Source: an uncultured Alphaproteobacteria bacterium (GTDB taxonomy: Bacteria; Pseudomonadota; Alphaproteobacteria; RF32; CAG-239). From it: 64,000 bases of DNA. Shown one piece after another: positions 7,244 to 60,459 of the stretch. The position numbers and the translations under genes were made by a program. Under the pieces are notes generated by a model. It saw nothing but the letters and a program-made list of their open reading frames with translations, was not told the DNA's origin and did not search any database. Each line of letters opens with the position of its first letter. The first letter of the stretch is position 1. The stretch is taken from contig CALXTD010000003.1 of the NCBI GenBank assembly GCA_944391315.1, positions 286 to 64,285 on the forward strand, read 5' to 3'.

Positions 7244-7316
7244 TAAAAACCTTGAAATTATGATAGAGTAAAGCTATTATCGCGACAGATTAAAAATAAA
7301 TAACAAAGGCTTTAAA

Positions 7317-13158: not shown

Positions 13159-16100
13159 ATGGCAAAAGAAACGATAAAAAAATATAAAAAATATAAGCTG
13201 TTAGATTACTTTGGTGTAATCTTTCTCAGCTTATTTTTGTTCTTTGTCTGGCATTTGTATAAAGGACCGATAGCCGTACCGTTTTTGAAACCTTATATCA
13301 TACAGGCCTTAAACGGCAGTGAAGATTATCAGGTGTCATTGGATTCTGTTAACATAGAGCTGGTCCGCTCCATTCAGCCGATAAAAATTATTGCCAATAA
13401 CATTGTCTATAAAAAGGCCGATGACAGCTTTGTTATTAATGCGCCGCGCACTTCCGTATCCTTTAGTTTAAGAGCTTTGCTGCGCGGTATTATTGCGCCG
13501 AGTGCCATAGAAGTCGATTCTCCGAATATTTATGCCTTTACCAGTTATGGAATAGAGGCCGGAAAAACCAATGAAGCAAATAAAAAGAAAATCGAATATT
13601 ATTCCAATATGTTGGAAGATTTTTTAGAAAGATATAACTCCGGTGATAAATATTTTGTAGAAAATTATATTAATGAAATCGCCATAAAAAATGCAAGCTT
13701 CGAGTTTCATGAAGTTGACTTAGGCCGCAAGTGGACCCTTAACGATGTGAACTATCATTTTGAACGTGAAGGTGAACAAATTTATACCGAAGCCAATGCT
13801 TTGTTTACAATAAACAACAACACATCTTCCGTTGGGATAGAAGTTGCTTTTGATAACAACAAAAAGGACTTAAACCTAAAGAGCTATTTCTCCGATGTTA
13901 TTCCGTCAGATATTGTGAATAGCTTTGTTGAAGAAAAACAAAGAAAAGAACTTTATCAAATAAATTTACCGCTAAGCGGTTCTCTTGAAACAAATATTGC
14001 GCTAAAAGGAATTATTAATGAGCGCAAAAAAATATTAGATGATTTGGATAACGCGGTAAAAAAAATAAAGCTGCAGTTAGAAGGCGGGCAGGGAAACATC
14101 ATGTTTACCTCAGACGAGGCCTTCAAGTATGATATTTCGTCTTTCACGTTGGATGGCACCATAGAAGGCGGGCTAAAACAGCTCAAGGTATCAGGAGCAG
14201 AATTTGACCTTGGCGGGCAAAAGATGACTCTTGGTTTTGAGGTCAGCGGATTAAAAAATTATATTTTAGAAGATTCTCTAAAAGACATAAAAGCCGTGAT
14301 TACCGCTAACATCAAAAACCTAAAGTTTGATGACTTACCAAAATATTGGCCGAGATATATTGGCGAAAGCGCTTGGAAATGGTGCGAAGACAGTCTGTTT
14401 GTCGGCACCGCCAAAGACGGCGAGTTTCGCTTTGATTTTGGATATGATAAAAAGAAAAAGGCCGTTGTTTTCCAAGAGTTGAAAGGAAAGGTCTATGCCG
14501 AAGATTTAACAGTCAGATACATAAACACCATGCCGGTTATAACAAATGTCTATGGTGAGGCTTTATTTGATTCAAACAGCATCACGGTAAATATTGATAA
14601 GGGAAAATCAGACGGTGTGATTTTAACCGGCGGTTATGTCCGACTTTATGATTTAGATAAATATAATAACTATGCCGATATTGAGCTAAAAACAGAATCT
14701 TCCGTGACAGATGCCTTGAGGTTAATTGATAATCCGCCGCTAAATTTTGTAAAAGACATGAAAATTCCGGCAGATAGATTGAGCGGCGAGGCCTCAACCA
14801 CAGTCAAGCTTGATTTGGAGTTAAAAGAAGATTTAGCATCAGACGAGGTCAAAGCAGATGTCAAATCCACCTTGACTAACGTCACGATGAAAGACGTTAT
14901 TGACGGAAAAAATTTAACTTCTCAGGTGCTGGAATTAAGCGTAAATAATAACGAGCTTTTGCTAAGCGGTGCCGCAGAAATAGATGGCATTCCGTTAACC
15001 TTTGAGTGGAATGAAAACTTCAAACAAAAGGCTGAAAAAACAAAATATGACATCAGCTTTAAGCTAGATGATAAAGTCAAGAAAAAATTAGGTCTGGATA
15101 AAATTGAATATATAAATCCGCCTTATATTGAAGGCTATGCCGATGTTGCGGCCCAAATCAGCATATCAGATGATAAAAAAACAAAAATAGATATGAATGC
15201 CGATATAAAAAATGCCGCTATTGATTACTCGTTTTTGGGCTTTAGAAAATTATCCGGTTCTGACGGAAATATTATGGCCGAAATTGAGGTTAATGGCAAT
15301 AAACTCAGCGGAATACCGTCATTTTCGTTGTCAAAGCCGGACTTTAATTTGAGCGGAAAAATTGAACTGGATAAATCCGGAAGTGTAAAAATAATTGACA
15401 TTGATACCATAAAAGGCCCAAAAACAAACGCACGTGCAAAAATAGAATGGGCAGAAGAAAATAAAAAACCACTGATAAAAGTCAATGTATCCGGAAACAG
15501 CTATGATTTGGCCGAGTTTTTTGAACGCCGCGAAGCCGACAGCAAGAAAAAAGCCGTTCAAGACGAAAAAAAACAAGCAGAACAAGAAGAACTGGAGCTT
15601 GAGAATATTACGGACACAGATATAAATATTGCGGTTAATCGCTTGTGGACCAATAAGTTTGTCTCAATCAGCAGCTTTGCCGGTACAGCAAAAGTCAGGA
15701 AAAACATCGGCTTGCACGAGCTTCACATGATAGGAAATTATGGAAACAGTAAGGAAGTCAAACTAAAAGCCGACTATGTGCCTAAACCCAATAATGAATA
15801 TTACCTCTCAATCACAAGTAATAATGCCGGTAGCACTTTTAAGGTATTAAGAATATATGATGATATAAGCGGCGGAAACCTAAAGATTGAGGCTAAGAAA
15901 GGCGCTGATAAAAAATTTATCGGACATGCCTCAATCAGAGATTTCAACTTGCATAACACGCCGGTACTGGCAAAAGTTTTGAGTATGGCCTCTTTGACCG
16001 GTATTGTCGGAATGTTATCAGGTGAGGGAATAGCTTTTTCTCATTTGGATGCTCCCTTTGAATATAAAAACAAGATATTGAATGTCACAGACGCCCGTGC

Positions 16101-16398
16101 TTTTGGTAATGTTTTGGGGATTACAATGACCGGTGAGTATAATTGGGGCAAAGAAGAAGTCAGCGGAAAAGGCGTTATTGCACCGGCATATAGCATTAAC
16201 AGCTTTTTAGGAAGCATTCCTCTGGTCGGCAATTTGTTAGCCGGCAAAGATGGTACCGTGTTTGCGGCCAACTACTCAATTAAAGGCAAAATCGACGATG
16301 TAAAAGTCAGCATAAACCCGCTGTCTGCGTTAAGCCCAGGGTCTTTAAAAGACCTGTTCTCTTCACTATTTGGAAGCCAAGACAATGTCAAAAATTAG
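13159..16398 (+). CDS. AsmA/YhdP-family large envelope protein (tentative)
   Basis: 1079 aa with one N-terminal TM helix and a long beta-rich body. The C-terminal block (GITMTGEYNW...VIAPAYSINSFLGSIPLVGNLLAGKDGTVFAANYSIKGKIDDVKVSINPLSAL) resembles the AsmA_2/YhdP/TamB C-terminus. ATG directly abuts the upstream stop. Confidence 0.55.
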   Translation: MAKETIKKYKKYKLLDYFGVIFLSLFLFFVWHLYKGPIAVPFLKPYIIQALNGSEDYQVSLDSVNIELVRSIQPIKIIANNIVYKKADDSFVINAPRTSVSFSLRALLRGIIAPSAIEVDSPNIYAFTSYGIEAGKTNEANKKKIEYYSNMLEDFLERYNSGDKYFVENYINEIAIKNASFEFHEVDLGRKWTLNDVNYHFEREGEQIYTEANALFTINNNTSSVGIEVAFDNNKKDLNLKSYFSDVIPSDIVNSFVEEKQRKELYQINLPLSGSLETNIALKGIINERKKILDDLDNAVKKIKLQLEGGQGNIMFTSDEAFKYDISSFTLDGTIEGGLKQLKVSGAEFDLGGQKMTLGFEVSGLKNYILEDSLKDIKAVITANIKNLKFDDLPKYWPRYIGESAWKWCEDSLFVGTAKDGEFRFDFGYDKKKKAVVFQELKGKVYAEDLTVRYINTMPVITNVYGEALFDSNSITVNIDKGKSDGVILTGGYVRLYDLDKYNNYADIELKTESSVTDALRLIDNPPLNFVKDMKIPADRLSGEASTTVKLDLELKEDLASDEVKADVKSTLTNVTMKDVIDGKNLTSQVLELSVNNNELLLSGAAEIDGIPLTFEWNENFKQKAEKTKYDISFKLDDKVKKKLGLDKIEYINPPYIEGYADVAAQISISDDKKTKIDMNADIKNAAIDYSFLGFRKLSGSDGNIMAEIEVNGNKLSGIPSFSLSKPDFNLSGKIELDKSGSVKIIDIDTIKGPKTNARAKIEWAEENKKPLIKVNVSGNSYDLAEFFERREADSKKKAVQDEKKQAEQEELELENITDTDINIAVNRLWTNKFVSISSFAGTAKVRKNIGLHELHMIGNYGNSKEVKLKADYVPKPNNEYYLSITSNNAGSTFKVLRIYDDISGGNLKIEAKKGADKKFIGHASIRDFNLHNTPVLAKVLSMASLTGIVGMLSGEGIAFSHLDAPFEYKNKILNVTDARAFGNVLGITMTGEYNWGKEEVSGKGVIAPAYSINSFLGSIPLVGNLLAGKDGTVFAANYSIKGKIDDVKVSINPLSALSPGSLKDLFSSLFGSQDNVKN

Positions 16399-18934: not shown

Positions 18935-21900
18935 CTATTTTGAATTAAATTTTTCTTTTAGTGCGGCTAAACCGGATAAATCTGTAATAGAAGTACTTTT
19001 TTGTCCTTTAGCCGCTTTTTTTGCTTCTTTTAAGCGCTTTTTGTTTTCCTCGGGAGAAATAAGTTCTTCTTCTTGATAACTTTTCTCATGCTCTATTCCA
19101 GCCTTTTCTTCAAGAAACTCTCGCGTGGTGTAAATCCATTCGTTTGCATCTTCGTCATAATAAGACTGATTGTTAGATTCACGTTCAATATTAATGACCT
19201 TATCCTTTACATCTAAGAACAAGAAATAAGTTTCATCGTCAACAGTTCTACTATCAGAAATTTCATATCCAAGCTTATTCATAACTTTTTTTGCTATGTT
19301 TTCATAGCCCAAATTTCGACGGTCTCTGCCAACGGCATTGAAGTAATCATATCCGTGCGTTTCTTCGTTATCAAAGAAATTTAATAGTTCTTGCGCGGTA
19401 AATTCATCTATATGAGAAAGTTTTTCTTGTCTTTCAGCTTCTTTTTCTTGTTCAGCTTTTTCATTTTGAATGGTAAGAATGTCATTATCACGAATATTTA
19501 ATCCATGAACTTTCTTCAACCGTTTTTTTATTTCCTCAATTTTTTCAGAAGTTGAAATTTCTGATCTAATGAGTTCATTATTTTCTTCCAGAGTCTTATT
19601 ATATACATCTTCTTTACGAGTTTCGACCGGCTGAATAATCAAATCAGAAAATTCATCTTCCGTAATATCACCTTTGGCAAAAGGCTTAAATTCATCCATT
19701 TGGGAAAGGGTTTTTGCAATTTCTTTATATCCCGTATTTTCCAAGTTTTCATCAGGAATATTCTGCGCAACTTTCAATCCCATTTTTTTAATAGCTTCTT
19801 TTCTTTCTTTAATTTTGATTTCGGCTTTTTTGTTATGAATAAAAGAACGAAGTTTTTCTTTGTAAGCATCAGATAAATCAGCCTCATTCACAAGATTTTC
19901 AAGAGCGGTGGCGTTTGAAAGCATTTCATCAGAAATTTGAGATGTAACATTTGCATAACTCTTTTTATCTTCTTCAGGATCCCTGTTAGATTGAAAGACC
20001 TCCCCATTTTCTGCGGAAACAAAAAGTTTTTCGCCTTTTAATGTTGTAGATTTTCCTGTGGAGACATTAAGAATCTTAGAATTATCAAAGACAAATTTCT
20101 TATCTAAATTCATATAATAAAAATCCAATTGATTAACGGAAGAATTACGAAACTTAACATCTTTGGTTTGAGAGTAATCAAGCTCAACATAACTAGTATC
20201 TACGCCATCAAATAATAAATCCTTGGATTTAGAATGTTTTGCTTTTATTTCACTGGCTTTCATATGAGACAAAGAAATTCTATCAGCAGTAACACCTTCC
20301 AGAGAAATAATATTGTTAAAATTGTCATTTTCGGAAGACAAATTAATCTCTTTTAGAGTTGATGAATCAAACATTAGGGTATTAGACGCATCGCCGCAAA
20401 TATGCATATTGACTACCAAATCAGGATTCTGAATCTCAAAATGAGTAGCAACAACAGGATTTATTTTTAAATCAAGCTTATTGTCTTTAATAAGTCCGAG
20501 TTTTAAAATATCTTTTTCATTAATGTAAACGGAACTGTTATAATTAGACCTTTCCTCGTTAAGAATTTTAAATAAATCAAAGTTCTTTTTAGGGCGAGGG
20601 GCAGAAAGTACGTCACAAATAAGATCGTCATAATGTTCTTTTTTTAAAATATCCTTCCAAAAAGGAACAGGAATATTGTTTTTCTCTGTATAGTTTCTAA
20701 ACTCATCAACCCCTTTTTCCTCAAGCAGTTTCATTGCCTCTGCGACACGTGCTTTAAAGGCATCTGTAACAAATTCTTTTAATTTGTAATTTCCGATATA
20801 AGAAGAATCCAATATATGAAAATCTTTATCATCATCAACTTTTGAAATTACATCAGGATTTTTACGAATATACGTTTTAATATCATCAGCAGACAAAGCC
20901 GTAACATTTTCATTTACGGTGAAAGAACGGCCGCCGTTTTTAGGAGTAATTACCCGAGGTTCAGCCAGATAAAACATAGATGCTCTAACAGTAGAAGAGT
21001 TAGAAACATCATAACTGTTACGGTTAAAAATATTCATACCATCAATATTAAGTTTTTCAATATGACCCGCAATGAGACATTGACGTAATTTATCATAGTC
21101 AAATTCAAGAGAGTCGGTAGAAAAGCGGACTCCCAATCTGTGTCGCAAATCACGAATAAGTTCCTTTGTTTCAAAGAAACGTTTTTTATTCATGTTATAA
21201 GTAAAAAATATTTGATTAGTTCTTGCTTCTAACTCTTTTCTCTGGATCCCAGAACGTTTAAGTTTTTTCAGTTCTTTATCAGTTGCAACAAAAGCCTTTA
21301 ATCCATCAAATAAGTCAGATGAATCATCTAAACCGTGATTTTGTCTGAAATTTTGCCGCAAGTTTCCTTGTTCGGAAATCGCAGTCATCACAATAGCTTG
21401 AGGCAAACAGTATTCGCGACTCTGGGCATATTTTAAGGTAACGGCATTTTCCACTGTAACCGGCAAATCATTAGAAAACTTTCCAAGATTTGTTAATTTT
21501 CCGTCCTCATCAATAAGTTTTAGCCTTTTTAATTTATCTTTTGCCGCCAAAAGTTGATTGTGATCAATATAAGCATCAAAATTCAAATCCTCAGCTTTCA
21601 AATCAAAGCTGGCACAATCCATGACCAAAGAAGAAAGAGGAAGTCGTGAAATTTCAGGAGTTGTTTCTTTGTCGCGATTACTCCATTTGCTGTAGGACGC
21701 TAAAACAAAGATACCATCGGTAAAACGACAAACACGACCTTTCTGTTGTTGTAAACGCCATTGAGGCAAATCTTGTTCTTTAAGAGCAATTGCTCCGCTG
21801 GAAGTAACAAAAAGGTCTTTTCCTTTACCTGAAGTAACACCTGCATCAAGCCAAGGAATATTCATACCGCTTTCGATAACATTTGTTCCGATAAGAATTT

Positions 21901-22720
21901 TTTTAAAACCATTTTGAGGTGCTTTAAGTGCTTTATCGCGCTCTTTTTTATCCATTTCACCATAGATTGAAGCCACCTCAACATTTTTAATATCTTTCGA
22001 AAGCAGCAAAGTTTCAATAGCATCTTTGGTATCTTCAATATTAGCCACACCGGATTCAAAAACAGCAACACCTTTTCTGTTTTTATTAAGGATTAAATCG
22101 ACAGCATGTTCGGCAGAAGATTTACTATTATCTTCAATAATTTCACAGTCAAAAGTTCTACCTTCTGATTCAAAAGTTTTAGGATTAAACTGTTTCCAGT
22201 ATTCTTTTTGTTTTTCAAGATTAATTGTAGCGCTCATTTCAATCAGACGCATCGGATCACCTTGAGTCTTTCTATAATGAAGCAAGGCTTTAGCAATAGA
22301 CATATCCATAGATGCTTCGTGTACTTCATCAAGAACGATATTTTTTTCATAAAATATCATACCGGAACTGATAGCATAACCATAGGTAGCAAAAATAATT
22401 TTCGAGCGCTTGCTAAAAAGAGGTTCATCACCACCTTGAGTACCAACCGCATAACCAACTTCTTCACCAAGAGACGTGTCGGAAAGCTCAGCCACGGTTT
22501 CCGCAGCATTAATAGCTAAGAATTTTCTTGGAACAAGAACAACAACTCTTTCATTATCAGGAATTTTATCGGCTAATTTGGCTGGTATTGTTAAAGTTTT
22601 ACCGCTACCGGTAGGAGAAGAGATGATTGTTACGCTTTCATCAACGGCCTGCATAACATCGTCAGAAACTTCATTAACAGGAAGATCTTTTAATGTGTTA
22701 TTATATAATTCTTCAAACAT
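18935..22720 (-). CDS. DEAH/RHA-type (HrpA/HrpB-like) helicase with a long unrecognised C-terminal extension
   Basis: Maximal ORF is 18935..22747 (1270 aa). The second ATG at 22720 has GGGAGAG 5 nt upstream and is preferred. Motifs GSGKT, DEVHE, SAT, TNVIESGMNIP, QQQKGRVCR, followed by an HA2/OB-like region. About 650 further aa carry no catalytic motif I recognise. Confidence 0.8.
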   Translation of the reverse strand: MFEELYNNTLKDLPVNEVSDDVMQAVDESVTIISSPTGSGKTLTIPAKLADKIPDNERVVVLVPRKFLAINAAETVAELSDTSLGEEVGYAVGTQGGDEPLFSKRSKIIFATYGYAISSGMIFYEKNIVLDEVHEASMDMSIAKALLHYRKTQGDPMRLIEMSATINLEKQKEYWKQFNPKTFESEGRTFDCEIIEDNSKSSAEHAVDLILNKNRKGVAVFESGVANIEDTKDAIETLLLSKDIKNVEVASIYGEMDKKERDKALKAPQNGFKKILIGTNVIESGMNIPWLDAGVTSGKGKDLFVTSSGAIALKEQDLPQWRLQQQKGRVCRFTDGIFVLASYSKWSNRDKETTPEISRLPLSSLVMDCASFDLKAEDLNFDAYIDHNQLLAAKDKLKRLKLIDEDGKLTNLGKFSNDLPVTVENAVTLKYAQSREYCLPQAIVMTAISEQGNLRQNFRQNHGLDDSSDLFDGLKAFVATDKELKKLKRSGIQRKELEARTNQIFFTYNMNKKRFFETKELIRDLRHRLGVRFSTDSLEFDYDKLRQCLIAGHIEKLNIDGMNIFNRNSYDVSNSSTVRASMFYLAEPRVITPKNGGRSFTVNENVTALSADDIKTYIRKNPDVISKVDDDKDFHILDSSYIGNYKLKEFVTDAFKARVAEAMKLLEEKGVDEFRNYTEKNNIPVPFWKDILKKEHYDDLICDVLSAPRPKKNFDLFKILNEERSNYNSSVYINEKDILKLGLIKDNKLDLKINPVVATHFEIQNPDLVVNMHICGDASNTLMFDSSTLKEINLSSENDNFNNIISLEGVTADRISLSHMKASEIKAKHSKSKDLLFDGVDTSYVELDYSQTKDVKFRNSSVNQLDFYYMNLDKKFVFDNSKILNVSTGKSTTLKGEKLFVSAENGEVFQSNRDPEEDKKSYANVTSQISDEMLSNATALENLVNEADLSDAYKEKLRSFIHNKKAEIKIKERKEAIKKMGLKVAQNIPDENLENTGYKEIAKTLSQMDEFKPFAKGDITEDEFSDLIIQPVETRKEDVYNKTLEENNELIRSEISTSEKIEEIKKRLKKVHGLNIRDNDILTIQNEKAEQEKEAERQEKLSHIDEFTAQELLNFFDNEETHGYDYFNAVGRDRRNLGYENIAKKVMNKLGYEISDSRTVDDETYFLFLDVKDKVINIERESNNQSYYDEDANEWIYTTREFLEEKAGIEHEKSYQEEELISPEENKKRLKEAKKAAKGQKSTSITDLSGLAALKEKFNSK

Positions 22721-22821
22721 AACTTCTCTCCCAAAATAATCAAACATTGATTAATATATATCATATTTTAAAACTTTTGTCTATTAAATTTTTTTGAGAT
22801 GTATTAATAAATTGATATTAA

Positions 22822-33255: not shown

Positions 33256-33435
33256 ATGTCTGAGATTTTGTTTGAATATGTCCGGCAAGGAAATTTTGTA
33301 AAAGTAACGGCAATAGAGGCTGAAACACAAATTGAGGCCAGCGTTGTCGTTCCCGCCGGACTAAGTCAAGAACAAATGCAGATTCAGGCTTTAAGACGCT
33401 TAAAATATGTCATGGAAAAACAAAGCCGAGAATAA
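33256..33435 (+). CDS. Small conserved-looking protein, 59 aa (below the ORF-track cutoff)
   Basis: ATG immediately after the parC stop. MSEILFEYVRQGNFVKVTAIEAETQIEASVVVPAGLSQEQMQIQALRRLKYVMEKQSRE. Resembles a small alphaproteobacterial family of the type E..F......VKV.AID..TG.EV...GP (recollection only). Confidence 0.45.
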   Translation: MSEILFEYVRQGNFVKVTAIEAETQIEASVVVPAGLSQEQMQIQALRRLKYVMEKQSRE

Positions 33436-33545: not shown

Positions 33546-36500
33546 ATGTCGACTAATGAATCAAATAAAAACACGACAATAACGACTACTCCGGAATTAG
33601 ATAACAAACAAACCTGGCTAAGCAATAATTTGTACCAACTGATGATTTGGACAAGTGTAGCATGGTTTGGCATTGTGCTGTTTTACATCAGCCAGTTTTT
33701 CGGTTGGTCTAACCTGTTTCTGATGATGCCGGATGAATTTGGCGGATTTTTAGCCGGTGTAACACTGCCTTTGGCGATATTGTGGGTTGTTGTGGCCTAT
33801 ATTGACCGTGGAACAAGCTTCAAGACCGAGGCCAGATTGCTGAGAAGTTATATGAACCAGCTTGTTTATCCGGAAGAGGGCGCAGCCCAAACAGCTAAGG
33901 CAATGGCAGACGGCATTCGCTCACAGGTTGTTGAATTACAAAATGCAACCAAATTGGCAACCGAGCAAAGCCAAAAGATAAAAGAGGAATTAAATGCACG
34001 GGTAGAAGATTTTGCCGGCATTATTTCAACTTTGGATAAATATTCATCACAAACGGTCGGGCAGTTGTCTGATACCTTAAAGCAGCTGACCACATCATTT
34101 GAGATGATGAATGAAAAAGCCTTGTCCCATAGTGGAAACTTAAAAAATATCGGAGCTGAGGTTTCTGGCATATTTGCGCAGATGAACAAAGAAGCAGATA
34201 TGTTTGTCAAAAATGTTTTACCGAATATCAATGAGGTAAAATATTCGGCAGAATTGCTCGAAAAAGCTACCAAAGAGAGCAATGCTCGCATGATAAAGGC
34301 AAATGAGACAATCTTAGAGTTAGCCGATAAATCTCATAACAGCATTGAAAAAGCATCAGAAATTTTGGAGTCTCAGGCTCAAAAAATTGCTTTGATATCA
34401 GAAAAGGCTGTCAGCGAATGCGACAAGATGAGACAAAATATTGATAATAGTGTCAATTCTTTGGCCGATGTTATGCAAAGCCAAAACAATACGATGAAAG
34501 GCTATGTTGAAACCTTAAACCAAAACGCAGATACTTTGGGGCAAAAATTTGCCGAGCAAGGAGACGTTGTTAAGGCTGAGATTGATAAAATTATTTCAAG
34601 AGCGGGTATGGCAGAAGAAAGCATCGCCATCCAAGTCCGCGAATTAAACAGTGTTTCAGAAGAAATCAATAATATTATGCAAGCTGTTCAGTCTGATATC
34701 AAGGAACACAGTGAACTCTTAGAAAAAACAACGGATATTGCTCAGAAAAATACTGATATTGTTATAGAAAGCCTCAAAAAAGAGGCTTCTGCCGTTGCTG
34801 AAACAGCAGATCAGTCAATCTTGAAGTTAAATTCCGTCAATGAGACTTTAAAGGGTAATCAAGCGCAAATAAAAGAAGCAGAACAAGAGACCGCAAACAG
34901 AATACAGGTTACAGCACAAGATTTACAGCAAAAATCCGCATTGTTGCAAAACACTGCCGATACAGCAGTAAAAGCCTTAGAACAAATTTCACAGACAATG
35001 AAGAAAAATGCCGAAAGCATTGGCGAAACTTCATCATTAGTTGTAACTCAGAGCAAAATAAGCGAAAACTCTTTGACCCAGCAACAGCGTATTATCAGCA
35101 CATCAGTCAACCATATTGAAGAGATGAAAGGCGAACTCAAGAGAGAAATTGAAGAGCTGAGCCGCATTTCAAATATGATGGGTGAAGATGCTAAAGATAC
35201 AATAAAGAGCTTAAAAGAACAAATAGAAGCTACTTACGCCGTATCAGAAGACATTATCGGAAAAACAAATGAACTCAAACAAGAATTCAAATCTCAAGCC
35301 GATGATATGTCAAGTCTGGTCGATATAACTTGCAATAAAATGAAGGTTGTTAACGATAATCTTGAAAGCCATTATCAAAAGATTGACAATCTGAATGACA
35401 GCATTGAAAGCAAGACAACCAACTTAACACATATGTTGTCATTGCAAACAGAGATGATAAACAAATCATCAGAAGCCTCTGAAAAAACACATAAAGACTT
35501 GCTTAACTCCTTTAGCAAGCAAAGCAACATGCTAAGCAATATGGCTGAAACAACAATTGGTTATGTGACAGACGTCATAAAAGCATTTGACGAAAAAGCT
35601 GAAATGATTAACCTATTGTTTAAACAGCAAGAAGGCGAGTTTTTCGATATTTGTGATAAAATTTCAGAGAATACAAATAATATCGGCAGCGCCATGAAAA
35701 AACAAATTTCTATCATTGAACAAAGCGCCGATAGAGTTTTCTCAAGATTAGCAATATTGGAAGAAGATGCCAGCAAGCGTTCAAACTTCATTAATAGCAG
35801 CGTAGAGCAGTCTATAGATAAATTGCTCAAGATAAACGAAGCTGTAGAAGCACAAAATGATGCTGTTGTCAGAATAATTAATGGCATGCAAGATAAAATG
35901 CAGCAAGTTACGGATGATTTTAACCAAAACATATCATCTTTTGCTGAGATTTTTGACCAGGTTAAAGAAGGCGCAGACAATGTTTCAGCCGGCATTATGG
36001 ATAATTGCCGCCGCCTTGAGGCTGCGAATGAGAGCATGGCTTCCGGCAGTAAAGACATTGCCATGATTATGGAAGGCCATATAAAGACCTTGGATGAAGC
36101 TTTAATTAAAACCCAATCTCAGGCAGAAAGTATAAAAGAAAGCCTTACCCAACAGTCTGAAAGCATAAAAGATGTCGTAAATGTTGTTTCAACCCAAACC
36201 AGACTGGGCGAGGCCTCTTTGGCACAGCAGTATAAGTACTTGTCTGAAGCGTCAACAAACGTCGCACAACAGCTTAATGAAATCAGTGAGCAGATAAAAA
36301 ATAGCGGTGAAAACATCACAGAAATTACCACCAAAGCTGGATATAATATAGATTCTCTTGGCGATAAGATGCTAAAAATCGGAGAAGATATCTCCAAAGC
36401 AACCAAAGCCTCTGTTAAAAATATTGAACAAGTTGGCTTGTCATTATCTCAAAGCTCTGAGGATTTGACAAAGACGGTAGAAGTTTCAAATCAAAAAGTC

Positions 36501-37505
36501 AGCGCCGTTATGAAGGATTATGAAAAATATTTGGCCGGCTTTAATACCGTAACCGCAGAAGCCAGCACCGGTGTTATTGAGATAAATAATCTGATATCAG
36601 AACAAAATGATAAGATGTTGAATTTGTCAGAAGGCACCAAAGAGCTGGTAACCTACTTTAATACTGTGTTAAATGATGCCTCAATGGTCTTGTCTGACAG
36701 AGCCAATCAGGCTTACGACAAGGTAAAAGGCCTTGGCGATAGTTTGAAAAAGCTGGGCATACAGCTTGATGAAATGACTAAACAAAGCGCCGGCAGCTTA
36801 GAAAATGCCGGAAATAAGCTGAGAGCATCTATTGGCGAAATTTCTTCAAATGCAGAAAGAGTTGCCAATGACATCCGCTCTTCCGGAGAAATCTTCTTAA
36901 AACAGTCAAATGTCTTGGTTGCGGCAAGTGATGATTCAATTAGTAAAGTAACTGAGGTCGTTGGCTCTTTAAGCAATGCGTCAAAAGAGTTCACTGCCCA
37001 AGGAGAAGATATTCTCCAAAAGTCAAACGGCTTTAATGCATTGTTCAAAAAACAACTTCAAATTTTAACGGATACATCATCAAAAGCTGAGCTAAAATTG
37101 AAGGATTTAGAAAAGCTTTATGAAGGCATGAGGGTAGACAGCTTCTTAAGAAACGCCTCTTATGTTCTGGAAAAACTTGAATCGGCAGCTGTTGACATTA
37201 ACCGGATATTCAACCCCGGCGTAGAAGAAGAACTCTGGAAAAAGTATTATAACGGAGATACTTCAGTGTTCGTCAGACATCTTGCCAGAACAATGAGCCG
37301 GAGCCAAATTGTCGGCATTAAGACTGAATTTGAAAAGAATGCAGAATTCAGAGACGTTGTCACCCGCTATCTGACAGATTTTGAAAGTCTGGTAGGAAAA
37401 GCCAAAGACAGCGAAAAATCAGGACTTCTGTTGTCAGTTATTTCAGGGGCTGATGTCGGTAAACTCTATTATGTATTAGCAAAAGCATTGGATAGAATTA
37501 ACTAA
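33546..37505 (+). CDS. Giant membrane-anchored coiled-coil protein (unknown function)
   Basis: ATG 33546 with AGGGGA upstream (1319 aa). Two N-terminal hydrophobic helices. More than 1000 aa are Q/S/E/K/N/A-rich with almost no Pro. The C-terminal ~130 aa is aromatic-containing (EELWKKYYNGDTSVFVRHLARTMS). Confidence 0.8.
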   Translation: MSTNESNKNTTITTTPELDNKQTWLSNNLYQLMIWTSVAWFGIVLFYISQFFGWSNLFLMMPDEFGGFLAGVTLPLAILWVVVAYIDRGTSFKTEARLLRSYMNQLVYPEEGAAQTAKAMADGIRSQVVELQNATKLATEQSQKIKEELNARVEDFAGIISTLDKYSSQTVGQLSDTLKQLTTSFEMMNEKALSHSGNLKNIGAEVSGIFAQMNKEADMFVKNVLPNINEVKYSAELLEKATKESNARMIKANETILELADKSHNSIEKASEILESQAQKIALISEKAVSECDKMRQNIDNSVNSLADVMQSQNNTMKGYVETLNQNADTLGQKFAEQGDVVKAEIDKIISRAGMAEESIAIQVRELNSVSEEINNIMQAVQSDIKEHSELLEKTTDIAQKNTDIVIESLKKEASAVAETADQSILKLNSVNETLKGNQAQIKEAEQETANRIQVTAQDLQQKSALLQNTADTAVKALEQISQTMKKNAESIGETSSLVVTQSKISENSLTQQQRIISTSVNHIEEMKGELKREIEELSRISNMMGEDAKDTIKSLKEQIEATYAVSEDIIGKTNELKQEFKSQADDMSSLVDITCNKMKVVNDNLESHYQKIDNLNDSIESKTTNLTHMLSLQTEMINKSSEASEKTHKDLLNSFSKQSNMLSNMAETTIGYVTDVIKAFDEKAEMINLLFKQQEGEFFDICDKISENTNNIGSAMKKQISIIEQSADRVFSRLAILEEDASKRSNFINSSVEQSIDKLLKINEAVEAQNDAVVRIINGMQDKMQQVTDDFNQNISSFAEIFDQVKEGADNVSAGIMDNCRRLEAANESMASGSKDIAMIMEGHIKTLDEALIKTQSQAESIKESLTQQSESIKDVVNVVSTQTRLGEASLAQQYKYLSEASTNVAQQLNEISEQIKNSGENITEITTKAGYNIDSLGDKMLKIGEDISKATKASVKNIEQVGLSLSQSSEDLTKTVEVSNQKVSAVMKDYEKYLAGFNTVTAEASTGVIEINNLISEQNDKMLNLSEGTKELVTYFNTVLNDASMVLSDRANQAYDKVKGLGDSLKKLGIQLDEMTKQSAGSLENAGNKLRASIGEISSNAERVANDIRSSGEIFLKQSNVLVAASDDSISKVTEVVGSLSNASKEFTAQGEDILQKSNGFNALFKKQLQILTDTSSKAELKLKDLEKLYEGMRVDSFLRNASYVLEKLESAAVDINRIFNPGVEEELWKKYYNGDTSVFVRHLARTMSRSQIVGIKTEFEKNAEFRDVVTRYLTDFESLVGKAKDSEKSGLLLSVISGADVGKLYYVLAKALDRIN

Positions 37506-38068
37506 TGGGAATTTCTGTAACACAAGGCTATCAGCTTGAGATTGATAAGCTTCTGCAAAGCATAGGCGCCAGCGCCGAACGCTTAAGCGGAAAGGAGAGC
37601 TTTTCTGTTGCGCAGGAGGCAAAAAATCAAGCGATTCCTGCAGAAATTTCTTTCGGACAAGCTTATTTAGAACCCAAAGCCTCGTTCACGGTACAAGAAT
37701 ATGTGTCCGATAATCCCTTGCAAGAAAGCGCTGCCGAAAAATATCGGAAAAGCTTGTATAACAAGCCAGATAAAGAAAAAAATCTTGAATCGGCAGAAAC
37801 ATCAGGGCTTGATTTTTCAGAAATATTAAACCGCCTTGGAACGGAAAATAAAGTTGAAGCCTATGATAAAGTAGCGCAAAGCTATATACAACCACAAGAA
37901 AATGCCGGACTAAATGCAAATATTATGAATATGACAAAAGAGTTTTCATATTCAACCCTTGATTATGCGGTAAATACATATAATTATGTACAAGACATAA
38001 ACCGCCAACCGCATATTCTGATTGATTTTATGCACGAATATAACCGTAATTATAATTTTGAGGCCTAA
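37505..38068 (+). CDS. Hypothetical protein, 187 aa
   Basis: ORF with TAATG overlaps at both ends (start with the coiled-coil gene stop, stop with the dusB start). No motif recognised. Confidence 0.6.
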   Translation: MGISVTQGYQLEIDKLLQSIGASAERLSGKESFSVAQEAKNQAIPAEISFGQAYLEPKASFTVQEYVSDNPLQESAAEKYRKSLYNKPDKEKNLESAETSGLDFSEILNRLGTENKVEAYDKVAQSYIQPQENAGLNANIMNMTKEFSYSTLDYAVNTYNYVQDINRQPHILIDFMHEYNRNYNFEA

Positions 38069-39039
38069 TGCAAATATTAGATTTTGATAGCAATGTTTTT
38101 ATGGCACCAATGGCCGGAATAACCGATAAGCCATTAAGAAAGCTGGTGTCGTCACTCGGAAAAGGCGTTATGGTCTCAGAGATGGTCGCTATTAATGCCA
38201 TTCAAAGAAAAAATCCTAAAACCTATCGCATAGCTGATGTGAGGGATGAGGCTTATCCTGTTGTGGTTCAACTGGTAGGCAATGATCCGCTTCTTTTTTC
38301 AGAGGCTGCAAAATTAGCAGAAGAATTAGGGGCTCATTCTCTGGATATTAATATGGGCTGCCCAGTCAAGAAGATTGTGAATAATCAGTCTGGCTCAGCT
38401 TTAATGAAAGACGTAAAACTGGCAGAGAAAATCATCAAATCAGTCGTAGACGCCACTCCGCTAAAGGTGAGTGTCAAGTTTCGCAAAGGCTGGGACGCCT
38501 CAAGCGTAAACGCCGTTGATTTTGCCAAAATGTGTGAAGCTAGCGGTGCTTCATATATAACCATACACGGGCGCACGCGCAGCGCTTTTTATTCCGGCGA
38601 GGCGGATTGGAATATTATCAGAGAGGTAAAAGAAGCCGTTAAAATACCGGTTATTGGTAACGGAGATATAAACACCCCTTATGATGCGGAAAGAATGATA
38701 AAAGAGACCGGAGTTGACGGCGTTATGATTGGCCGTGCCGGATTGGGCAACCCATGGCTGATAAGCCAAACGGATGATTATTTAAGAACTGGAACAGAAC
38801 CAAGAAAAATTCCTGTCACGGAAATAAAAGCTTTTATGCTGAAACATATTGAAGAATTAAGCAACTATTACGGACAAGAAATGGGCCTGGCCATTTCTCG
38901 AAAGTTTGTATGCTGGTACTGTAAAAACTTGCGCGATGCCAAAAGATTTCGCGAAACCTATACCAAAATAAATGACTATCAGCAGGCCATGTCTGCGATA
39001 GATGAATATTTTGACAGTTTTGGAGAAGAAGAGAGATGA
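38068..39039 (+). CDS. dusB: tRNA-dihydrouridine synthase B
   Basis: 323 aa. MAPMAGITD, INMGCPVKK, HGRTR, GNGDI. Confidence 0.92.
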   Translation: MQILDFDSNVFMAPMAGITDKPLRKLVSSLGKGVMVSEMVAINAIQRKNPKTYRIADVRDEAYPVVVQLVGNDPLLFSEAAKLAEELGAHSLDINMGCPVKKIVNNQSGSALMKDVKLAEKIIKSVVDATPLKVSVKFRKGWDASSVNAVDFAKMCEASGASYITIHGRTRSAFYSGEADWNIIREVKEAVKIPVIGNGDINTPYDAERMIKETGVDGVMIGRAGLGNPWLISQTDDYLRTGTEPRKIPVTEIKAFMLKHIEELSNYYGQEMGLAISRKFVCWYCKNLRDAKRFRETYTKINDYQQAMSAIDEYFDSFGEEER

Positions 39040-40394
39040 AAATAATTGTCTGCGGCGCCGGAAGAATAGGCAAAAACATAGTCAGCTATCTTTCGTACGG
39101 AAATAATGACGTAAGCGTTATTGATACAGACCAGCAAAAGCTGGATGAGGTTGCAAAAGAATGGGATGTCTTACCGATTTTAGGCAATGCGGCACATCCT
39201 GAAATATTAGAAAAAGCCGGTGCAGAAAATGCAGATATGATATTAGCACTGACTAATTCTGACGAAGTTAATATGATCGCCTGTCAGGTTGCTGACTATT
39301 TGTTTCATATCAGAAAAAAAATTGCCAGAATAGATGCGGAAGCTTATCAAAATCCAATTTGGTGTGATTTATATAATCCTAATCATATCAATATAGATTT
39401 AATAATTTTTCCTGATATGGCAATTGCTGATGCAATATATGGAATAATAAAAGTACCGGGAGCATCATCAGTCATGCCCTTGGGCGAGAAGAAGATTTAT
39501 ATGCTCTCCATCAAATGCAATGAAAGTTGCCCTCTGATAAAAACCAGCATAGAACATATAGGCCTTGCCGCACCGGAGATAAAATTAGCACCGGTAAGCG
39601 TTGTCAGAAATGGCAAAAACTTTATTCCGACAGGAGAGTTTTGCTTAGAAGCCGGAGATGAGCTTTTCTTTTTAGTCGCGGAAGAAGACATTGAAGAAGC
39701 ACTGCACAGTTTTGGGACCGATCATCCAAGCAACGAAAAAGTGGTGATTTTCGGCGGAAACCAAATATCATTATATCTGGCCCAAAAGTTGGAGGAAGAT
39801 GATAATATCATATCTTGTAAAATAATTGAAGAAGACAGACGTCGAGCCGCCTATCTGGCCAGAGTGTTGGAACACACATCTGTCGTCTGCGGAGAATTGC
39901 TTAGTGATATAATGCTTGAAGAAGCAGATGTCGAAGAGACCGATGTCACGATTTCAACAACTTTACGAGATAAGGACAATTTGCTAGCCTCTTTAATCGC
40001 AAAGAAAAACGGAGCTCATACGACCATATCATTAGTAAATTCAAATTCTTATAATACATTAGTAAGCAATTTGAATGACAGCATCATTGTTGACAGCGCA
40101 TCTGTCACCATATCCGAGATATTAAAAGAATTGCGCAAAGCCAAAATCAGCAAGGCTTATTCCTTAGGTCAAGGCTGCGGAGAGGTGTGGGAAATAAATA
40201 TAGATGAAACCTCGATGATAACGGATAAAAAAATAGTTGAGCTTGATTTACCAGAAAACAGTAAAGTATGCGCCATTATCAGAAACGACGAGATTATCTT
40301 TCCGGAGATATATGAGCGAATTTTAGAAGGCGATAGACTAATTGTTTATTGCGCTTCAAAAGCCATAAAAAAAGTTGAAAAAATATTTTCATAA
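39036..40394 (+). CDS. trkA: Trk potassium uptake system NAD-binding protein TrkA
   Basis: 452 aa. [15 protein letters not shown] Rossmann motif, duplicated RCK N/C modules. ATGA overlap with dusB. Confidence 0.9.
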
Positions 40395-40462
40395 AAAAAA
40401 CTTTACTAATAACAAGAAATGTACTTAAATTAAAAAGAACAAATATAATAAGGAATAAAAAA

Positions 40463-40690
40463 ATGTCACAAAACGTTCAGGAAGATTTTTTAAAAGACTT
40501 ATGCCAAAACAAGATTGCCGTTACGGTATTTTTGGTAAATGGCGTAAAGCTGCAGGGAATAATCACTTGGTTTGATGAAACCTCACTTCTGTTAAGAAGA
40601 GACGGCCACACCCAGTTGATATATAAACATGCCGTATCAACCATAATGCCGGGAACAGCCGTTAATATCGAACTTCCTGAAGTAAAATAA
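40463..40690 (+). CDS. hfq: RNA chaperone Hfq
   Basis: 75 aa. [41 protein letters not shown] is the alphaproteobacterial-type Sm1/Sm2 core. Confidence 0.95.
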
Positions 40691-40709
40691 ACACAAGGCT
40701 GACAAAGTC

Positions 40710-42011
40710 TTGAGTAATTTTCAGATAGAGGAGAAAAAGGCGGCAAAAGCCTATATTGTCTTTCCGAATATCACAAATTCGGAACAAAATCTTTCTCCCG
40801 AAGCCAGATTAGAAGAAGCCGTTGGTCTGGCGCGAGCCATAAGCTTGGATATCGCCGGTGCCGAAATTGTAAAATTGAGAGAAATTAAGTCAGGAGCTTA
40901 TTTCGGACAAGGCTATATTGATAAATTGGCAGAAAAATTCAGCCAAGAAAATATAGAACTATTGATTGTTGACGCTGGCCTAAGCCCAATACAACAAAGA
41001 AATCTTGAAAAAAAACTCAAAACAAAGGTTATTGACCGCACGGCGCTAATTCTTGAAATCTTTGGCGAAAGAGCCCAGACCAAAGAAGGAAAACTACAGG
41101 TAGAGCTGGCTCATTTAACTTATCAACGTAGCCGTCTTGTCCGAAGCTGGACCCACTTGGAGCGCCAACGCGGCGGTGCCGGATTTTTAGGCGGCCCCGG
41201 AGAAACCCAAATCGAGCTTGACCGAAGAATTATTGACGATAAAATTGTTCGCATAAAAAAAGAACTGGAAAAAGTCAAAAAGACCAGAGCCTTGCAAAGA
41301 AGCGCAAGACAAAAAGTTCCTTATCCGGTAGTAGCTTTGGTGGGGTATACCAATGCCGGAAAATCAACTTTGTTTAACAGCCTAACTCAAGCCGATGTCT
41401 TTGCCAAAGACTTGCTTTTTGCCACACTTGACACCACCATGAGAAAAATGAAGCTTCCTACCGGACAAGAGGTTATCCTCTCCGATACAGTAGGATTTAT
41501 TTCAGATTTACCTCATGAATTGATAATGGCCTTTCGCGCCACTTTAGAAGAAGTTTTAGCCGCTGATATTGTTGTTCATGTTCGCGATGTGGCTAATCCG
41601 GAAACACAAACACAAAAAAAAGATGTTTTGAATGTTTTGGAACATTTGGGACTAAAACATATTGAAACAGAAGAAAATTATATTGAGCTTTTAAATAAGG
41701 CAGATTTATTAACGCCGGAACAACAAACTTATTACAAAGAACTATCAGAAAGAAATTCTTCTTTGATTGTATGTTCGGCAGTAAGCGGGCAGGGGCTTGA
41801 TGAATTTTTGCAAACCATATCCGAAAAACTCAGCCGAGAAGAAAAAATTCTTGAAATTAACATAGCGGCAGAAAAAGGTAAGGAGATTGCATGGTTATAC
41901 GAAAATTCTGAGGTAATCAGTAGCAATCTTAAAGGAAAAAACATTTCTTTCACTTGTAAAATTTCTAACAAGAATTGCGCCCGCTTAGAAAAAATGCTGC
42001 AAAAAAATTAA
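40710..42011 (+). CDS. hflX: GTPase HflX
   Basis: 433 aa, TTG start. G1 GYTNAGKST, G3 DTVGF, G4 NKAD. Conserved hfq-hflX adjacency. Confidence 0.93.
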   Translation: MSNFQIEEKKAAKAYIVFPNITNSEQNLSPEARLEEAVGLARAISLDIAGAEIVKLREIKSGAYFGQGYIDKLAEKFSQENIELLIVDAGLSPIQQRNLEKKLKTKVIDRTALILEIFGERAQTKEGKLQVELAHLTYQRSRLVRSWTHLERQRGGAGFLGGPGETQIELDRRIIDDKIVRIKKELEKVKKTRALQRSARQKVPYPVVALVGYTNAGKSTLFNSLTQADVFAKDLLFATLDTTMRKMKLPTGQEVILSDTVGFISDLPHELIMAFRATLEEVLAADIVVHVRDVANPETQTQKKDVLNVLEHLGLKHIETEENYIELLNKADLLTPEQQTYYKELSERNSSLIVCSAVSGQGLDEFLQTISEKLSREEKILEINIAAEKGKEIAWLYENSEVISSNLKGKNISFTCKISNKNCARLEKMLQKN

Positions 42012-54252: not shown

Positions 54253-54328
54253 GGGTGCGTAGCTCAGTTGGTAGAGCAACTGACTCTTAATCAGTGGGTC
54301 TGGGGTTCGAACCCCCACGCGCCTACCA
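54253..54328 (+). tRNA. tRNA-Lys (anticodon CTT)
   Basis: 76 nt folded by hand. Acceptor GGGTGCG/CGCGCCT, D-arm AGCTCAGTTGGTAGAGC, anticodon stem ACTGA/TCAGT with loop CT-CTT-AA, T-arm TGGGG-TTCGAAC-CCCCA, encoded CCA. Confidence 0.95.
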
Positions 54329-58304: not shown

Positions 58305-59144
58305 ATGGATATAATTACATCAAGCATAATCATGTTAGGCGGCATAGCTCTGGCCTCAGGTGTTGTCTTATACTTTGTGTCCAAAAAGTTTTATGTAAAA
58401 GAAGATGCCAAAATATCTGAGGTTGAAAAGCTTCTTCCGGGCGTAAATTGCGGCGCTTGCGGAAAAGCCGGCTGTCATGATTTTGCTAAGGCTTGCAGCA
58501 AAGCTAATGCCGAAGGGTTTAAGCAGTTATATTGCACGGTTGGCGGCAATAAAGTTATGCAAAAGGTTGCAGAGGCCTTAGGCTATCGTCAGGAAGAAAA
58601 AGAAGAAACCGTCGCAGTCCTTCGTTGCCAAGGTACATGCCAAAATGCGCCGTCAAAGTTTGAATACACCGGCTTAAAGAGTTGCCGCTTGGTAGCACAA
58701 ATCTCCACCTCACAAAGCGAATGCCCCTATGGCTGTGTCCGCTTAGGTGACTGCGTTAGTGTGTGTAAATTCGGTGCTTTAAAAATTGACAAAGAACTGG
58801 GCATTCCTGTAGTCGATGAAAACAAATGTGTTTCTTGCGGTGCCTGCGTTGAAATTTGCCCTAAAAAATTATTTGAAATCAGGCCCAAAGGCAAAGACGG
58901 CAAAAGAGTTTATGTTGCTTGCCGTAATCAGCAAAAAGGAGCCATCGCCCGCAAAAATTGCTCAGCCGCATGTATCGGATGCATGAAGTGCACAAAGATT
59001 AATCCGGAAATCAAAGTCGAAAACAACTTGTCATACATTCCAACCTCGGTTGATGCTGAAACTTATGGACAAGAACTGGCCGACAATTGCCCGACCGGTG
59101 CAATTGTTTATACCGGCAGAAAGGAGAAAAAACATGGAGCTTAA
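58305..59144 (+). CDS. rnfB: Rnf complex subunit B (Fe-S)
   Basis: 279 aa. N-terminal TM, CGACGKAGC cluster, several ferredoxin-type CxxCxxCxxxCP motifs. Confidence 0.9.
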   Translation: MDIITSSIIMLGGIALASGVVLYFVSKKFYVKEDAKISEVEKLLPGVNCGACGKAGCHDFAKACSKANAEGFKQLYCTVGGNKVMQKVAEALGYRQEEKEETVAVLRCQGTCQNAPSKFEYTGLKSCRLVAQISTSQSECPYGCVRLGDCVSVCKFGALKIDKELGIPVVDENKCVSCGACVEICPKKLFEIRPKGKDGKRVYVACRNQQKGAIARKNCSAACIGCMKCTKINPEIKVENNLSYIPTSVDAETYGQELADNCPTGAIVYTGRKEKKHGA

Positions 59145-60459
59145 AACCTTTCCCATGGGCGGAATTCATCTCGACAAACATAAAATCACTTCTGACAAGC
59201 CTATCAAAGAGGCCGGCCTGCCGGAAATCGTATATATTCCGATAAAACAACATATCGGTGCTCCGTCAAAAATAAAAGTACAAAAAGGAGATAAAGTTAA
59301 GGTCGGAACCTTGTTGGCCGATGCTGATGGCATTGTCTCGGCAGATGTTCACTCTTCCGTATCCGGAGAAGTCATTAAAATTGAGGATATTGTCGATGCC
59401 GACGCCTATCTTTCAACCATGGTAGTAATCAAGGTAGAAGGCGATGTGTTCGAACCGACAATAGACCAAGGCCCTGAAATCAAAAAAGAAATTACGCTCA
59501 GCGCCGAAGAAATTGTAAAAAAAATCAGAGAATCAGGAATTGTCGGCATGGGCGGCGCCGGTTACCCAACCCCGATAAAGGCCACCATTCCGGAAGGAAA
59601 AAGGGTTAATACGCTGATAGTAAACGGCATTGAATGCGAGGCCTTTTTAACTGCAGATGATAGGTTAATGGTTGAAAGAGCTGAAGAAATTGTCATCGGA
59701 GCCAAAATCTTAAACAAAGCCTTAGGCATTCAAAACGCCATCATCGCAATTGATGAAAACAAGCCCCGCGCCATTGAAATTATGAAAAAAATCACCAGAA
59801 AATACGTCGGCGTTAATGTTCGCGTGTGCGAAAGCAAATATCCCCAAGGCGCAGAAAAACAACTCATAAAAGCCATAACGGGGAGGGAAGTCCCCTCAGG
59901 AAAACTGCCGATTGATGTTCATTGCATTGTTCAAAACGTGGGCACCGTCCATGCGATTTATGAGGCTGTTCAAAAAAATAAACCGCTTTTTGAACGAATT
60001 ATCACGGTAACGGGAGATAATGCGGCAGAAAATCCGCAAAATTTCAGAGCCAGAATAGGAACACCAGCCTCTTTCTTGATTAAACAAGTGACCACACATC
60101 CTGAAAACATCGGAAAAGTCATCTTCGGAGGTGGCATGATGGGCGTTTCTGCTGTTAATATGGATGCACCGGTAACCAAACTAACCTCCGGAATTTTACT
60201 GCTGAATGACGAAGACGCCACCAAACCGCCTGAAACAGCTTGCATTCGTTGCGCCCGCTGTGCAGATTCTTGCCCGATGGGGCTTCGTCCTTTTGCCATT
60301 GCAACAGCAATCCGAAATCACGATAACAAAGAGCTAAAACAGCTTCATATTATGGACTGCATAGAATGTGGCACTTGCTCCTTTATCTGTCCGGCGCGCA
60401 TTCCCTTGCTCGATTATTGCAAATTAGGAAAAATGGAAATCAGAAAACAAAAGAAATAA
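59134..60459 (+). CDS. rnfC: Rnf complex subunit C
   Basis: Start at ATG 59134 (AAGGAG upstream). GMGGAGYPT NADH/FMN-site motif and two 4Fe-4S motifs (CIRCARCADSCP, CIECGTCSFICP). Confidence 0.92.
   Translation: MELKTFPMGGIHLDKHKITSDKPIKEAGLPEIVYIPIKQHIGAPSKIKVQKGDKVKVGTLLADADGIVSADVHSSVSGEVIKIEDIVDADAYLSTMVVIKVEGDVFEPTIDQGPEIKKEITLSAEEIVKKIRESGIVGMGGAGYPTPIKATIPEGKRVNTLIVNGIECEAFLTADDRLMVERAEEIVIGAKILNKALGIQNAIIAIDENKPRAIEIMKKITRKYVGVNVRVCESKYPQGAEKQLIKAITGREVPSGKLPIDVHCIVQNVGTVHAIYEAVQKNKPLFERIITVTGDNAAENPQNFRARIGTPASFLIKQVTTHPENIGKVIFGGGMMGVSAVNMDAPVTKLTSGILLLNDEDATKPPETACIRCARCADSCPMGLRPFAIATAIRNHDNKELKQLHIMDCIECGTCSFICPARIPLLDYCKLGKMEIRKQKK

Follow-up and report, generated by a model that had tools for sequence, protein, structure and literature searches.

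The protein encoded at positions 33546-37505 and its family

The stretch of DNA considered here is a 64,000-nucleotide segment of contig CALXTD010000003.1 from an uncultured gut alphaproteobacterium (lineage RF32, CAG-239), which we call the window. On its forward strand, one open reading frame (ORF; positions 33546-37505, including the stop codon) encodes a giant protein of 1319 amino acid (aa) residues, and the question raised by this locus is whether such a long, apparently membrane-anchored coiled-coil protein is an orphan or a member of a family with a describable task. The original prediction, made from the sequence without database searches, saw no motif tying the protein to a described family, and likened it to polar or landmark scaffolds or to the long helical bundles of methyl-accepting chemotaxis proteins (MCPs). 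The first of these statements proved wrong, as the C-terminal module matches that of the growth pole ring protein GPR, a confident match of the kind that the prediction itself had named as its refutation, and the intuition of a polar or landmark scaffold gains support from this homology. The giant is a real, conserved gene and not an orphan, and its family is known but mechanistically obscure. Because both terminal modules and the architecture match, we assign the protein by sequence to the GPR/RgsE family, of which it appears to be a distant, shorter and divergent member and not an orthologue-like copy. We regard it as likely that the protein acts as a membrane-attached scaffold that organises the growth or shape of the cell envelope.

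In Agrobacterium tumefaciens, GPR assembles into a ring at the pole and is indispensable for polar growth, and a version without the last 221 residues loses both function and polar foci (PMC8262873). RgsE (SMc00190) of Sinorhizobium meliloti, which is 42% identical to GPR, has two transmembrane (TM) helices and a cytoplasmic rod in a topology that was shown experimentally, and its partners are TolQ (two-hybrid assay), RgsA and RgsS (PMC7327166). RgsE of Brucella abortus is essential and is found at the new pole (PMC9938171). Few organisers of polar growth are known in Rhizobiales (including Brucella and Agrobacterium), and the GPR/RgsE proteins are among them; RgsE acts there within the Rgs/Tol-Pal network. 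The family is further marked by a place at the growth (new) pole, by rings or hexamers and by a need for the protein in rod shape, and polar growth of the Rhizobiales type goes with the other Rgs proteins and a lack of MreB. The predicted layout of the 1319-aa protein, two TM helices followed by a giant cytoplasmic helix, is that of GPR and RgsE.

For the comparison with GPR (Atu1348), we used the machine-read text of FIG S3 of PMC8262873, which covers 2099 of the 2115 residues. A hidden Markov model (HMM) of the C-terminal module built from the gut family only matched the last 115 residues of GPR (1984-2098) with 59 bits, and a broader HMM from 42 sequences matched the extreme C-terminus (1973-2098) with 100.6 bits (E 3e-33 for one target). 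A BLASTP alignment of aa 1202-1319 with GPR 1983-2099 showed 36% identity (E 1.9e-16). When the C-terminal module of GPR itself was used as the query, 834 proteins were returned, headed by those of Agrobacterium fabrum (95% identity), Rhizobium, Sinorhizobium and Mesorhizobium, indicating that the figure-read GPR sequence is authentic and that the module, which the 1319-aa protein has in common with the Sinorhizobium and Mesorhizobium proteins, is general in Rhizobiales. The 5% gap to the Agrobacterium fabrum protein is due to reading errors in the figure text.

Homology of the hairpin and the juxtamembrane segment to GPR has weaker support than that of the C-terminal module. The HMM of the N-terminal region from the narrow family gave 7 bits against GPR, which is not significant. 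In the second round of jackhmmer, an N-terminal profile that included distant relatives matched GPR 160-262, that is TM2 and the juxtamembrane segment, at 31.5 bits; this match (E 1e-9 in a set of 190 sequences) was obtained before GPR entered the model and is co-linear. The residues in common include a Trp in TM1, the G...P motif in TM2 and the L..PE motif about 20 residues past TM2. In all, the 1319-aa protein combines a predicted two-TM hairpin, a continuous helix of more than 1000 residues (aa 76-1175), C-terminal homology to GPR and similarity in the hairpin and juxtamembrane regions.

The membrane hairpin and the juxtamembrane segment

The two N-terminal hydrophobic helices of the original prediction are present as described. 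They form a putative membrane hairpin (33630-33803, + strand) in which TM1 (aa 29-52) and TM2 (aa 66-86) are joined by an invariant, acidic loop of 13 residues (FFGWSNLFLMMPDEFGG), and a basic stretch follows TM2. Because of the acidic loop between the TM helices and the basic residues after TM2, the hairpin is predicted to have both ends inside (N-in/C-in), with the rod in the cytoplasm. Only TM2 of the 1319-aa protein passes the strict Kyte-Doolittle cut-off; with a hydropathy cut-off of 1.5, two adjacent segments are found in most full-length relatives. No other block of the family is conserved as strongly as the hairpin, which reaches 3.8-4.1 of 4.3 bits per column and whose motif W..Y..G..P.E..G...P..W..R is superfamily-wide, GPR included. 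The juxtamembrane segment (aa 87-175; 33804-34070, + strand) carries the motif LR.....L(V/A)(Y/E)PE, which is nearly invariant in the family.

The rod and its 25-residue register

The longest part of the protein is a putative cytoplasmic alpha-helical rod (aa ~76-1175; 33771-37070, + strand). The composition of the whole protein is rich in S, E, L, K, A, I and N, and of its six prolines (at 16, 62, 75, 109, 226 and 1224) only two lie within the rod, in agreement with the claim of a nearly proline-free stretch of more than 1000 residues. The claim of a heptad-like character was correct only in part. The rod consists of about 44 units of 25 residues, each composed of two heptads and one hendecad (7+7+11), which corresponds to 25/7 or 3.571 residues per turn; the register is not heptad-based. 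In the hydropathy of this single sequence (aa 76-1175), the Fourier power at 25/7 was 1374, versus 13.9 at the hendecad period of 11/3 and 2.4 at the heptad period of 3.5, and the maximum power after shuffling (n=300) was 59 ± 14, with a highest value of 134. In the family-averaged hydropathy, autocorrelation peaks recurred every 25 residues up to a lag of 375. Between the end of TM2 and residue ~1175, the 25/7 component kept its phase to about ±35°, so that the ~44 units follow each other without a single stutter.

The core positions, given as the residue number modulo 25, are 3, 6, 10, 13, 17, 21 and 24 (spacing 3-4-3-4-4-3-4); five of the seven are mainly Leu, Ile, Val or Phe, and the other two are mainly Ala, Ser, Thr or Val. 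As the non-core positions also show weak register-specific residue preferences, the rod amounts to a degenerate tandem repeat of 25 residues. A charge periodicity of 25 residues, as might be expected of a ruler for a periodic partner, was looked for in the rod and was not seen (power 0.01); only the trivial 3.57 term appeared. A literature search found no described coiled-coil register of 25/7 (3.57).

The rods of more than 70 distant full-length relatives share a periodicity of 3.555-3.58. Note that the perfect register is not universal in the family, since a subgroup of 1393-aa proteins (P0062 and 47 others) carries 62 extra residues near aa 292-324 (aligned as 11+33+18). The length of this insertion does not divide by 25, and the insertion displaces the register by about 150° around residues 300-375, so that this site tolerates one discontinuity.

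Because the seam is narrow (7 of 25 positions, five of them strongly hydrophobic) and the register is unbroken, we favour a nearly straight, homo-oligomeric coiled coil with its chains in register, which should be left-handed and would be ~160 nm long if fully extended (calculated from ~0.148 nm per residue). Stacked helical hairpins or a broad-faced lipid-binding helix would fit the rod data less well. Structure prediction with AlphaFold2 (AF2) gave an all-helical model for aa 990-1194 with low confidence (predicted local distance difference test score, pLDDT, about 60), and for aa 990-1319, where the model was likewise all-helical, the pLDDT of 63 was too low for conclusions on the geometry of the rod.

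The C-terminal module

The distinct C-terminal module of the original prediction was also recovered, as a conserved, all-helical globular module of ~135 aa (37098-37502, + strand), surpassed in conservation by only one other part of the protein. AF2 with the 42-sequence alignment predicted seven helices with high confidence (pLDDT 91; predicted template modelling score 0.83). A Foldseek search of this model against the PDB found no relative (best E 0.88, TM-score at most 0.49), and sequence searches of the PDB with the whole protein and with the module profile gave nothing significant (best E 0.05 over 35 residues). The fold of the module therefore appears to be novel, as far as can be judged from the model.

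Extent and conservation of the family

In a search of a collection of 5.8 billion proteins, we found more than 120 full-length homologues (1307-1458 aa) with 38-58% identity, all of which are unnamed or 'hypothetical', and most of which come from metagenome-assembled genomes (MAGs) labelled Alphaproteobacteria. This level of full-length identity implies purifying selection on the giant. Conservation along the protein is uneven: aa 24-175 are almost invariant, aa 180-480 are variable, further conserved patches lie at 500-540, 685-740, 870-900 and 990-1135, and conservation is strong again in aa 1200-1319. Such a pattern would not be expected of a generic coiled coil.

To define the superfamily, a profile of aa 990-1319 was compared with 1.84 billion cluster representatives, and it matched 1678 proteins at E<=1e-3, 1162 of them with E<=1e-10; the module was C-terminal throughout the 1678 matches. 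More than 1000 protein clusters share the architecture of the giant. Most of the full-length matches (700-1519 aa) bear the N-terminal hairpin, and in all of them the C-terminal module lies at the extreme C-terminus (E 1e-24 to 1e-67 for the module alone). Members were found in Novispirillum itersonii (WP_184263344.1), Kiloniella antarctica (WP_380253059.1) and many Micavibrio genomes; in the last, the N- and C-terminal modules are co-linear and ~3 kb apart (tblastn). A scan of a genome collection with the Micavibrio-type module sequences returned Micavibrio-like genomes only and none from Rhizobiales. The source annotations of members are either 'hypothetical' or clearly wrong (MCP, tape-measure protein, MlaD). 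Neither the hairpin and juxtamembrane region nor the C-terminal module is covered by a model in Pfam or NCBIfam; in NCBIfam scans, the giant did not match a curated TipN model, and ten shorter distant relatives matched neither a TipN model nor another named family.

The existence of distant relatives of RgsE outside Rhizobiales is not new, because 'more distant homologs' in Rhodospirillales and Emcibacterales were already reported by Krol et al. (PMC7327166). What appears to be new, as far as we could find, is that the rod keeps strictly to a 25/7 register, that the C-terminal module seems to have a novel fold, and that the family is broad and lacks annotation. The family is defined by two conserved end modules and a rod of variable length and register, and it occurs widely among alphaproteobacteria without known polar growth. 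In its non-Rhizobiales branch the 25-residue register is perfectly regular, apart from the shift in the 1393-aa subgroup. These results form a basis for a proper family model, whose members are now hypothetical or misannotated, and make the scaffold's ancestral function open to study. With its regular 25-residue rod and a C-terminal domain that has no solved relative, the 1319-aa protein offers a cleaner model for structural work.

Possible roles of the protein

The role that we consider likely would work as follows. The hairpin is predicted to anchor the protein in the inner membrane with both ends in the cytoplasm, and a single helical rod of ~1100 residues would run from TM2 into the cytoplasm and form an extended homo-oligomeric coiled coil. 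Through intramembrane contacts, the hairpin might dock to partners in the inner membrane, as suggested by the binding of RgsE to TolQ. The C-terminal domain may make the function-specific contact, because GPR loses all function on its deletion. The whole protein would then be a membrane-attached scaffold at a defined site of the cell, most likely a pole, where it would organise envelope growth or shape; this polar or morphogenetic role is proposed from homology to GPR/RgsE.

Several observations weigh against this assignment. The homology covers the two terminal modules only, about 20% of the protein, and the rods cannot be meaningfully aligned. GPR, with 2115 aa, is 800 residues longer, and its apolipoprotein-like rod mostly has 3.61-3.70 residues per turn with obvious 22-mer repeats, whereas that of the 1319-aa protein is 25-periodic. 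The autocorrelation of the GPR rod peaks at 11, 22, 44 and 66, a long-range periodicity that is approximate because it was obtained from machine-read figure text, and 3.57-3.59 residues per turn are seen only in its last ~350 residues, before a proline-rich linker. This linker precedes the C-terminal module of GPR and is absent from the 1319-aa protein. The N-terminal cytoplasmic tail also differs, with about 100 residues in GPR and 28 in the 1319-aa protein. PF01442 (apolipoprotein A1/A4/E), in which GPR is classed, was not found in the 1319-aa protein at E<=0.01. As PF01442 and the 11/22 periodicity mark the Rhizobiales branch, the giant would belong to a divergent branch. The change of register along the GPR rod hints that the rod in Rhizobiales arose by expansion from one of the 25/7 type. 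By database labels, moreover, the host, a gut alphaproteobacterium, lies outside Rhizobiales, and according to Krol et al. the other Rgs proteins were not found in the non-Rhizobiales with RgsE-like proteins, for which a different role was suggested (PMC7327166). As for the rod itself, periodicity alone underlies the oligomeric state and the extended geometry that we propose, and the AF2 model of aa 990-1194 puts a break at aa 1082-1088.

Since the host is outside Rhizobiales, the main rival of the GPR/RgsE-like scaffold is a related but different landmark role, in which the protein would have only its ancestry in common with GPR/RgsE and would be a family-specific membrane-anchored coiled coil with a job other than polar growth, for example a TipN-like landmark of pole identity or the division site, a tether associated with Tol-Pal, a spacer or a ruler. 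The spread of the family beyond the polar-growing Rhizobiales, to Micavibrio, Novispirillum, Kiloniella and gut MAGs, agrees with such a role, as do the absence of the other Rgs proteins in such orders and a rod unlike that of GPR in register (25 versus 11/22) and length. We nevertheless hold it to be unlikely, because both terminal modules, which are the likeliest sites of specific contacts, are conserved with GPR and it is the C-terminus that determines the function of GPR, and nothing positive points to any particular other role. A still less probable idea is that the 25/7 rod, the invariant hairpin and the seven-helix domain make up an ancestral, alphaproteobacteria-wide scaffold of ~100-200 nm, whose role outside Rhizobiales may be undescribed. 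Rhizobiales would then have expanded the 25/7 rod with 22-mer repeats into GPR, and outside Rhizobiales the protein might, for example, be a rigid spacer or ruler, with the hairpin bound to a TolQ-type inner-membrane complex and the C-terminal domain to a cytoplasmic or polar target, in a spacer design like a split ZorA stator-plus-tail.

The remaining readings are much harder to maintain. That the rod is a lipid-binding amphipathic helix, that is an apolipoprotein-like organiser and not a coiled coil, is brought to mind by the placing of GPR in PF01442 with a proposed action on lipids (PMC8262873) and by faint precomputed matches to PF01442 or PF06103 in some relatives. We judge this very improbable in view of the lack of a PF01442 match in the 1319-aa protein itself, a periodicity of 25/7 and not the apolipoprotein 11/3, and a seam of 7 positions in 25, two of them mostly Ala/Ser/Thr, which is narrow as is typical of a coiled-coil core. 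Least credible of all is a long helical bundle of the sensor or motor-tail type, whether MCP-like, SMC-like or resembling the tail of a ZorA stator. Its appeal lies in sub-threshold coil matches (SMC_prok_B, 40.7 bits; ZorA3, 49 bits; other ZorA models, 23-36 bits) and in the label 'methyl-accepting chemotaxis protein' that some sources give to relatives. The domain searches effectively refute all three versions. The likeness to an MCP-like bundle made in the original prediction is not supported, because a Pfam scan found no MCP signalling domain (MCPsignal, PF00015), HAMP or ligand-binding domain. Unlike the heptad-based hairpin bundle usual for MCPs, moreover, the register here runs on with no hairpin turn and is not built on heptads. 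An SMC-type assignment is not supported either, since the match to TIGR02168 (40.7 bits, against a cut-off of 567) covers coil only and the protein has no ATPase heads or hinge. The ZorA profiles (PADLOC, NCBIfam) match in the tail only and not in the MotA/ExbB/TolQ domain; two TM helices do not make a stator topology, and the neighbours are parC, dusB and trkA, with no zorB-like gene.

Several PADLOC profiles of ZorA matched the rod better than SMC did, up to 49 bits and in tail regions only. We regard all sub-threshold matches of the whole protein in Pfam, NCBIfam and PADLOC (ATG17_like, DUF4156, SMC, ZorA tails, LmuB and JetC) as compositional or periodic resemblance.

Comparison with other long coiled-coil proteins

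TipN of Caulobacter crescentus is a landmark of the new pole and has two N-terminal TM helices and a large C-terminal coiled coil. Its overall layout is like that of the 1319-aa protein and its association with the new pole is like that of GPR/RgsE. Scy and FilP of Streptomyces are cytoskeletal coiled coils of polar growth with a non-heptad repeat of 51 residues. They resemble the 1319-aa protein in being long bacterial coiled coils with a regular mixture of heptads and hendecads and a link to polar growth, but they are unrelated in sequence, lack a membrane anchor, and have a 51-residue repeat (~3.64 residues per turn) instead of one of 25 (3.571). The ZorA tail of the Zorya anti-phage system is likewise a long cytoplasmic helical tail on a membrane domain; it differs in that the matches are confined to the tail, and that a MotA/ExbB/TolQ domain, a ZorB partner and a defence context are all missing here.

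The gene and its genomic setting

The ORF list and the translation agree on an ORF that runs from ATG at 33546 to TAA at 37505 on the + strand. A GGGGA sequence lies ~10 nt 5' of the ATG, and an in-frame TTG at 33522 would, if used as the start, give a protein of 1327 aa (8 additional residues). The G+C content of the gene (38.8%) is close to that of the 64-kb window (39.2%), confirming the native-like composition noted earlier.

The translationally coupled chain from the giant to dusB and trkA was likewise confirmed. The giant overlaps orf187 (187 codons; 37505-38068, + strand) at TAATG, orf187 overlaps dusB at another TAATG, and dusB overlaps trkA at ATGA; dusB and trkA (38068-40394, + strand), identified with Pfam and NCBIfam, complete the chain of overlapping stop and start codons. 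Between parC and the giant lies a 59-aa ORF of the DUF6898 type (33256-33435, + strand), which begins one base past the parC stop codon; PF21839 is precomputed on its orthologues in the closer relatives L082-L084, to which it is 74-79% identical by tblastn. This ORF is kept at that position in the gut clade, where the gene order is recO-parC-DUF6898-[giant]-orf~185-dusB-trkA-hfq-hflX. The position between parC and dusB is thus conserved in the gut clade, but it is not kept in the Micavibrio loci. For this reason, the gene order, which consists of housekeeping genes around the giant, offers no clue to its function.

The position of orf187 is conserved and its sequence evolves fast: a counterpart with 30-39% identity lies at the same place in L082-L084, and it is missing in the P0056 relative (L001). 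No family was found for it above threshold in Pfam, NCBIfam or PADLOC, and TM segments are absent. Possibly, orf187 serves the giant as a partner specific to this clade. In relative L084, a 679-aa ORF with no Pfam match is inserted between the DUF6898-type ORF and the giant (5850-7889).

On the DNA side, a run from a chicken-gut metagenome contained the whole region on one 13.9-kb contig with 100% identity. On the RNA side, a gut metatranscriptome gave three short contigs within the giant or orf187; this is weak evidence of transcription, as carry-over of DNA is possible. Scans for promoters and terminators gave results at chance level.

Other features of the window

The genes dusB-trkA-hfq-hflX occupy 38068-42011 (+ strand); trkA follows dusB with no gene in between, and hfq, at ~40463-40690, has 75 codons and is thus not in the 80-aa ORF list. 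Many alphaproteobacteria have ntrBC-ntrYX between dusB (nifR3) and trkA, and these genes are not found there in this window. The window also holds genes for the penicillin-binding protein (PBP) PBP1a and parC, and MreB was absent among its ten largest other ORFs. Besides the giant, a further very large ORF (18935-22747, - strand) encodes 1270 aa with an N-terminal DEAD/ResIII helicase core (aa ~36-340), and the ~900 residues after this core have no Pfam match at E<=1e-5. One tRNA gene is located at 54253-54325. Ordinary chromosomal genes at 1099-3918, 8756-11212, 13159-16398 and 59050-60459 encode gyrA, a class A PBP, a YhdP-like protein and RnfC, respectively, the last of which suggests an anaerobic lifestyle, in keeping with an origin from the chicken gut.

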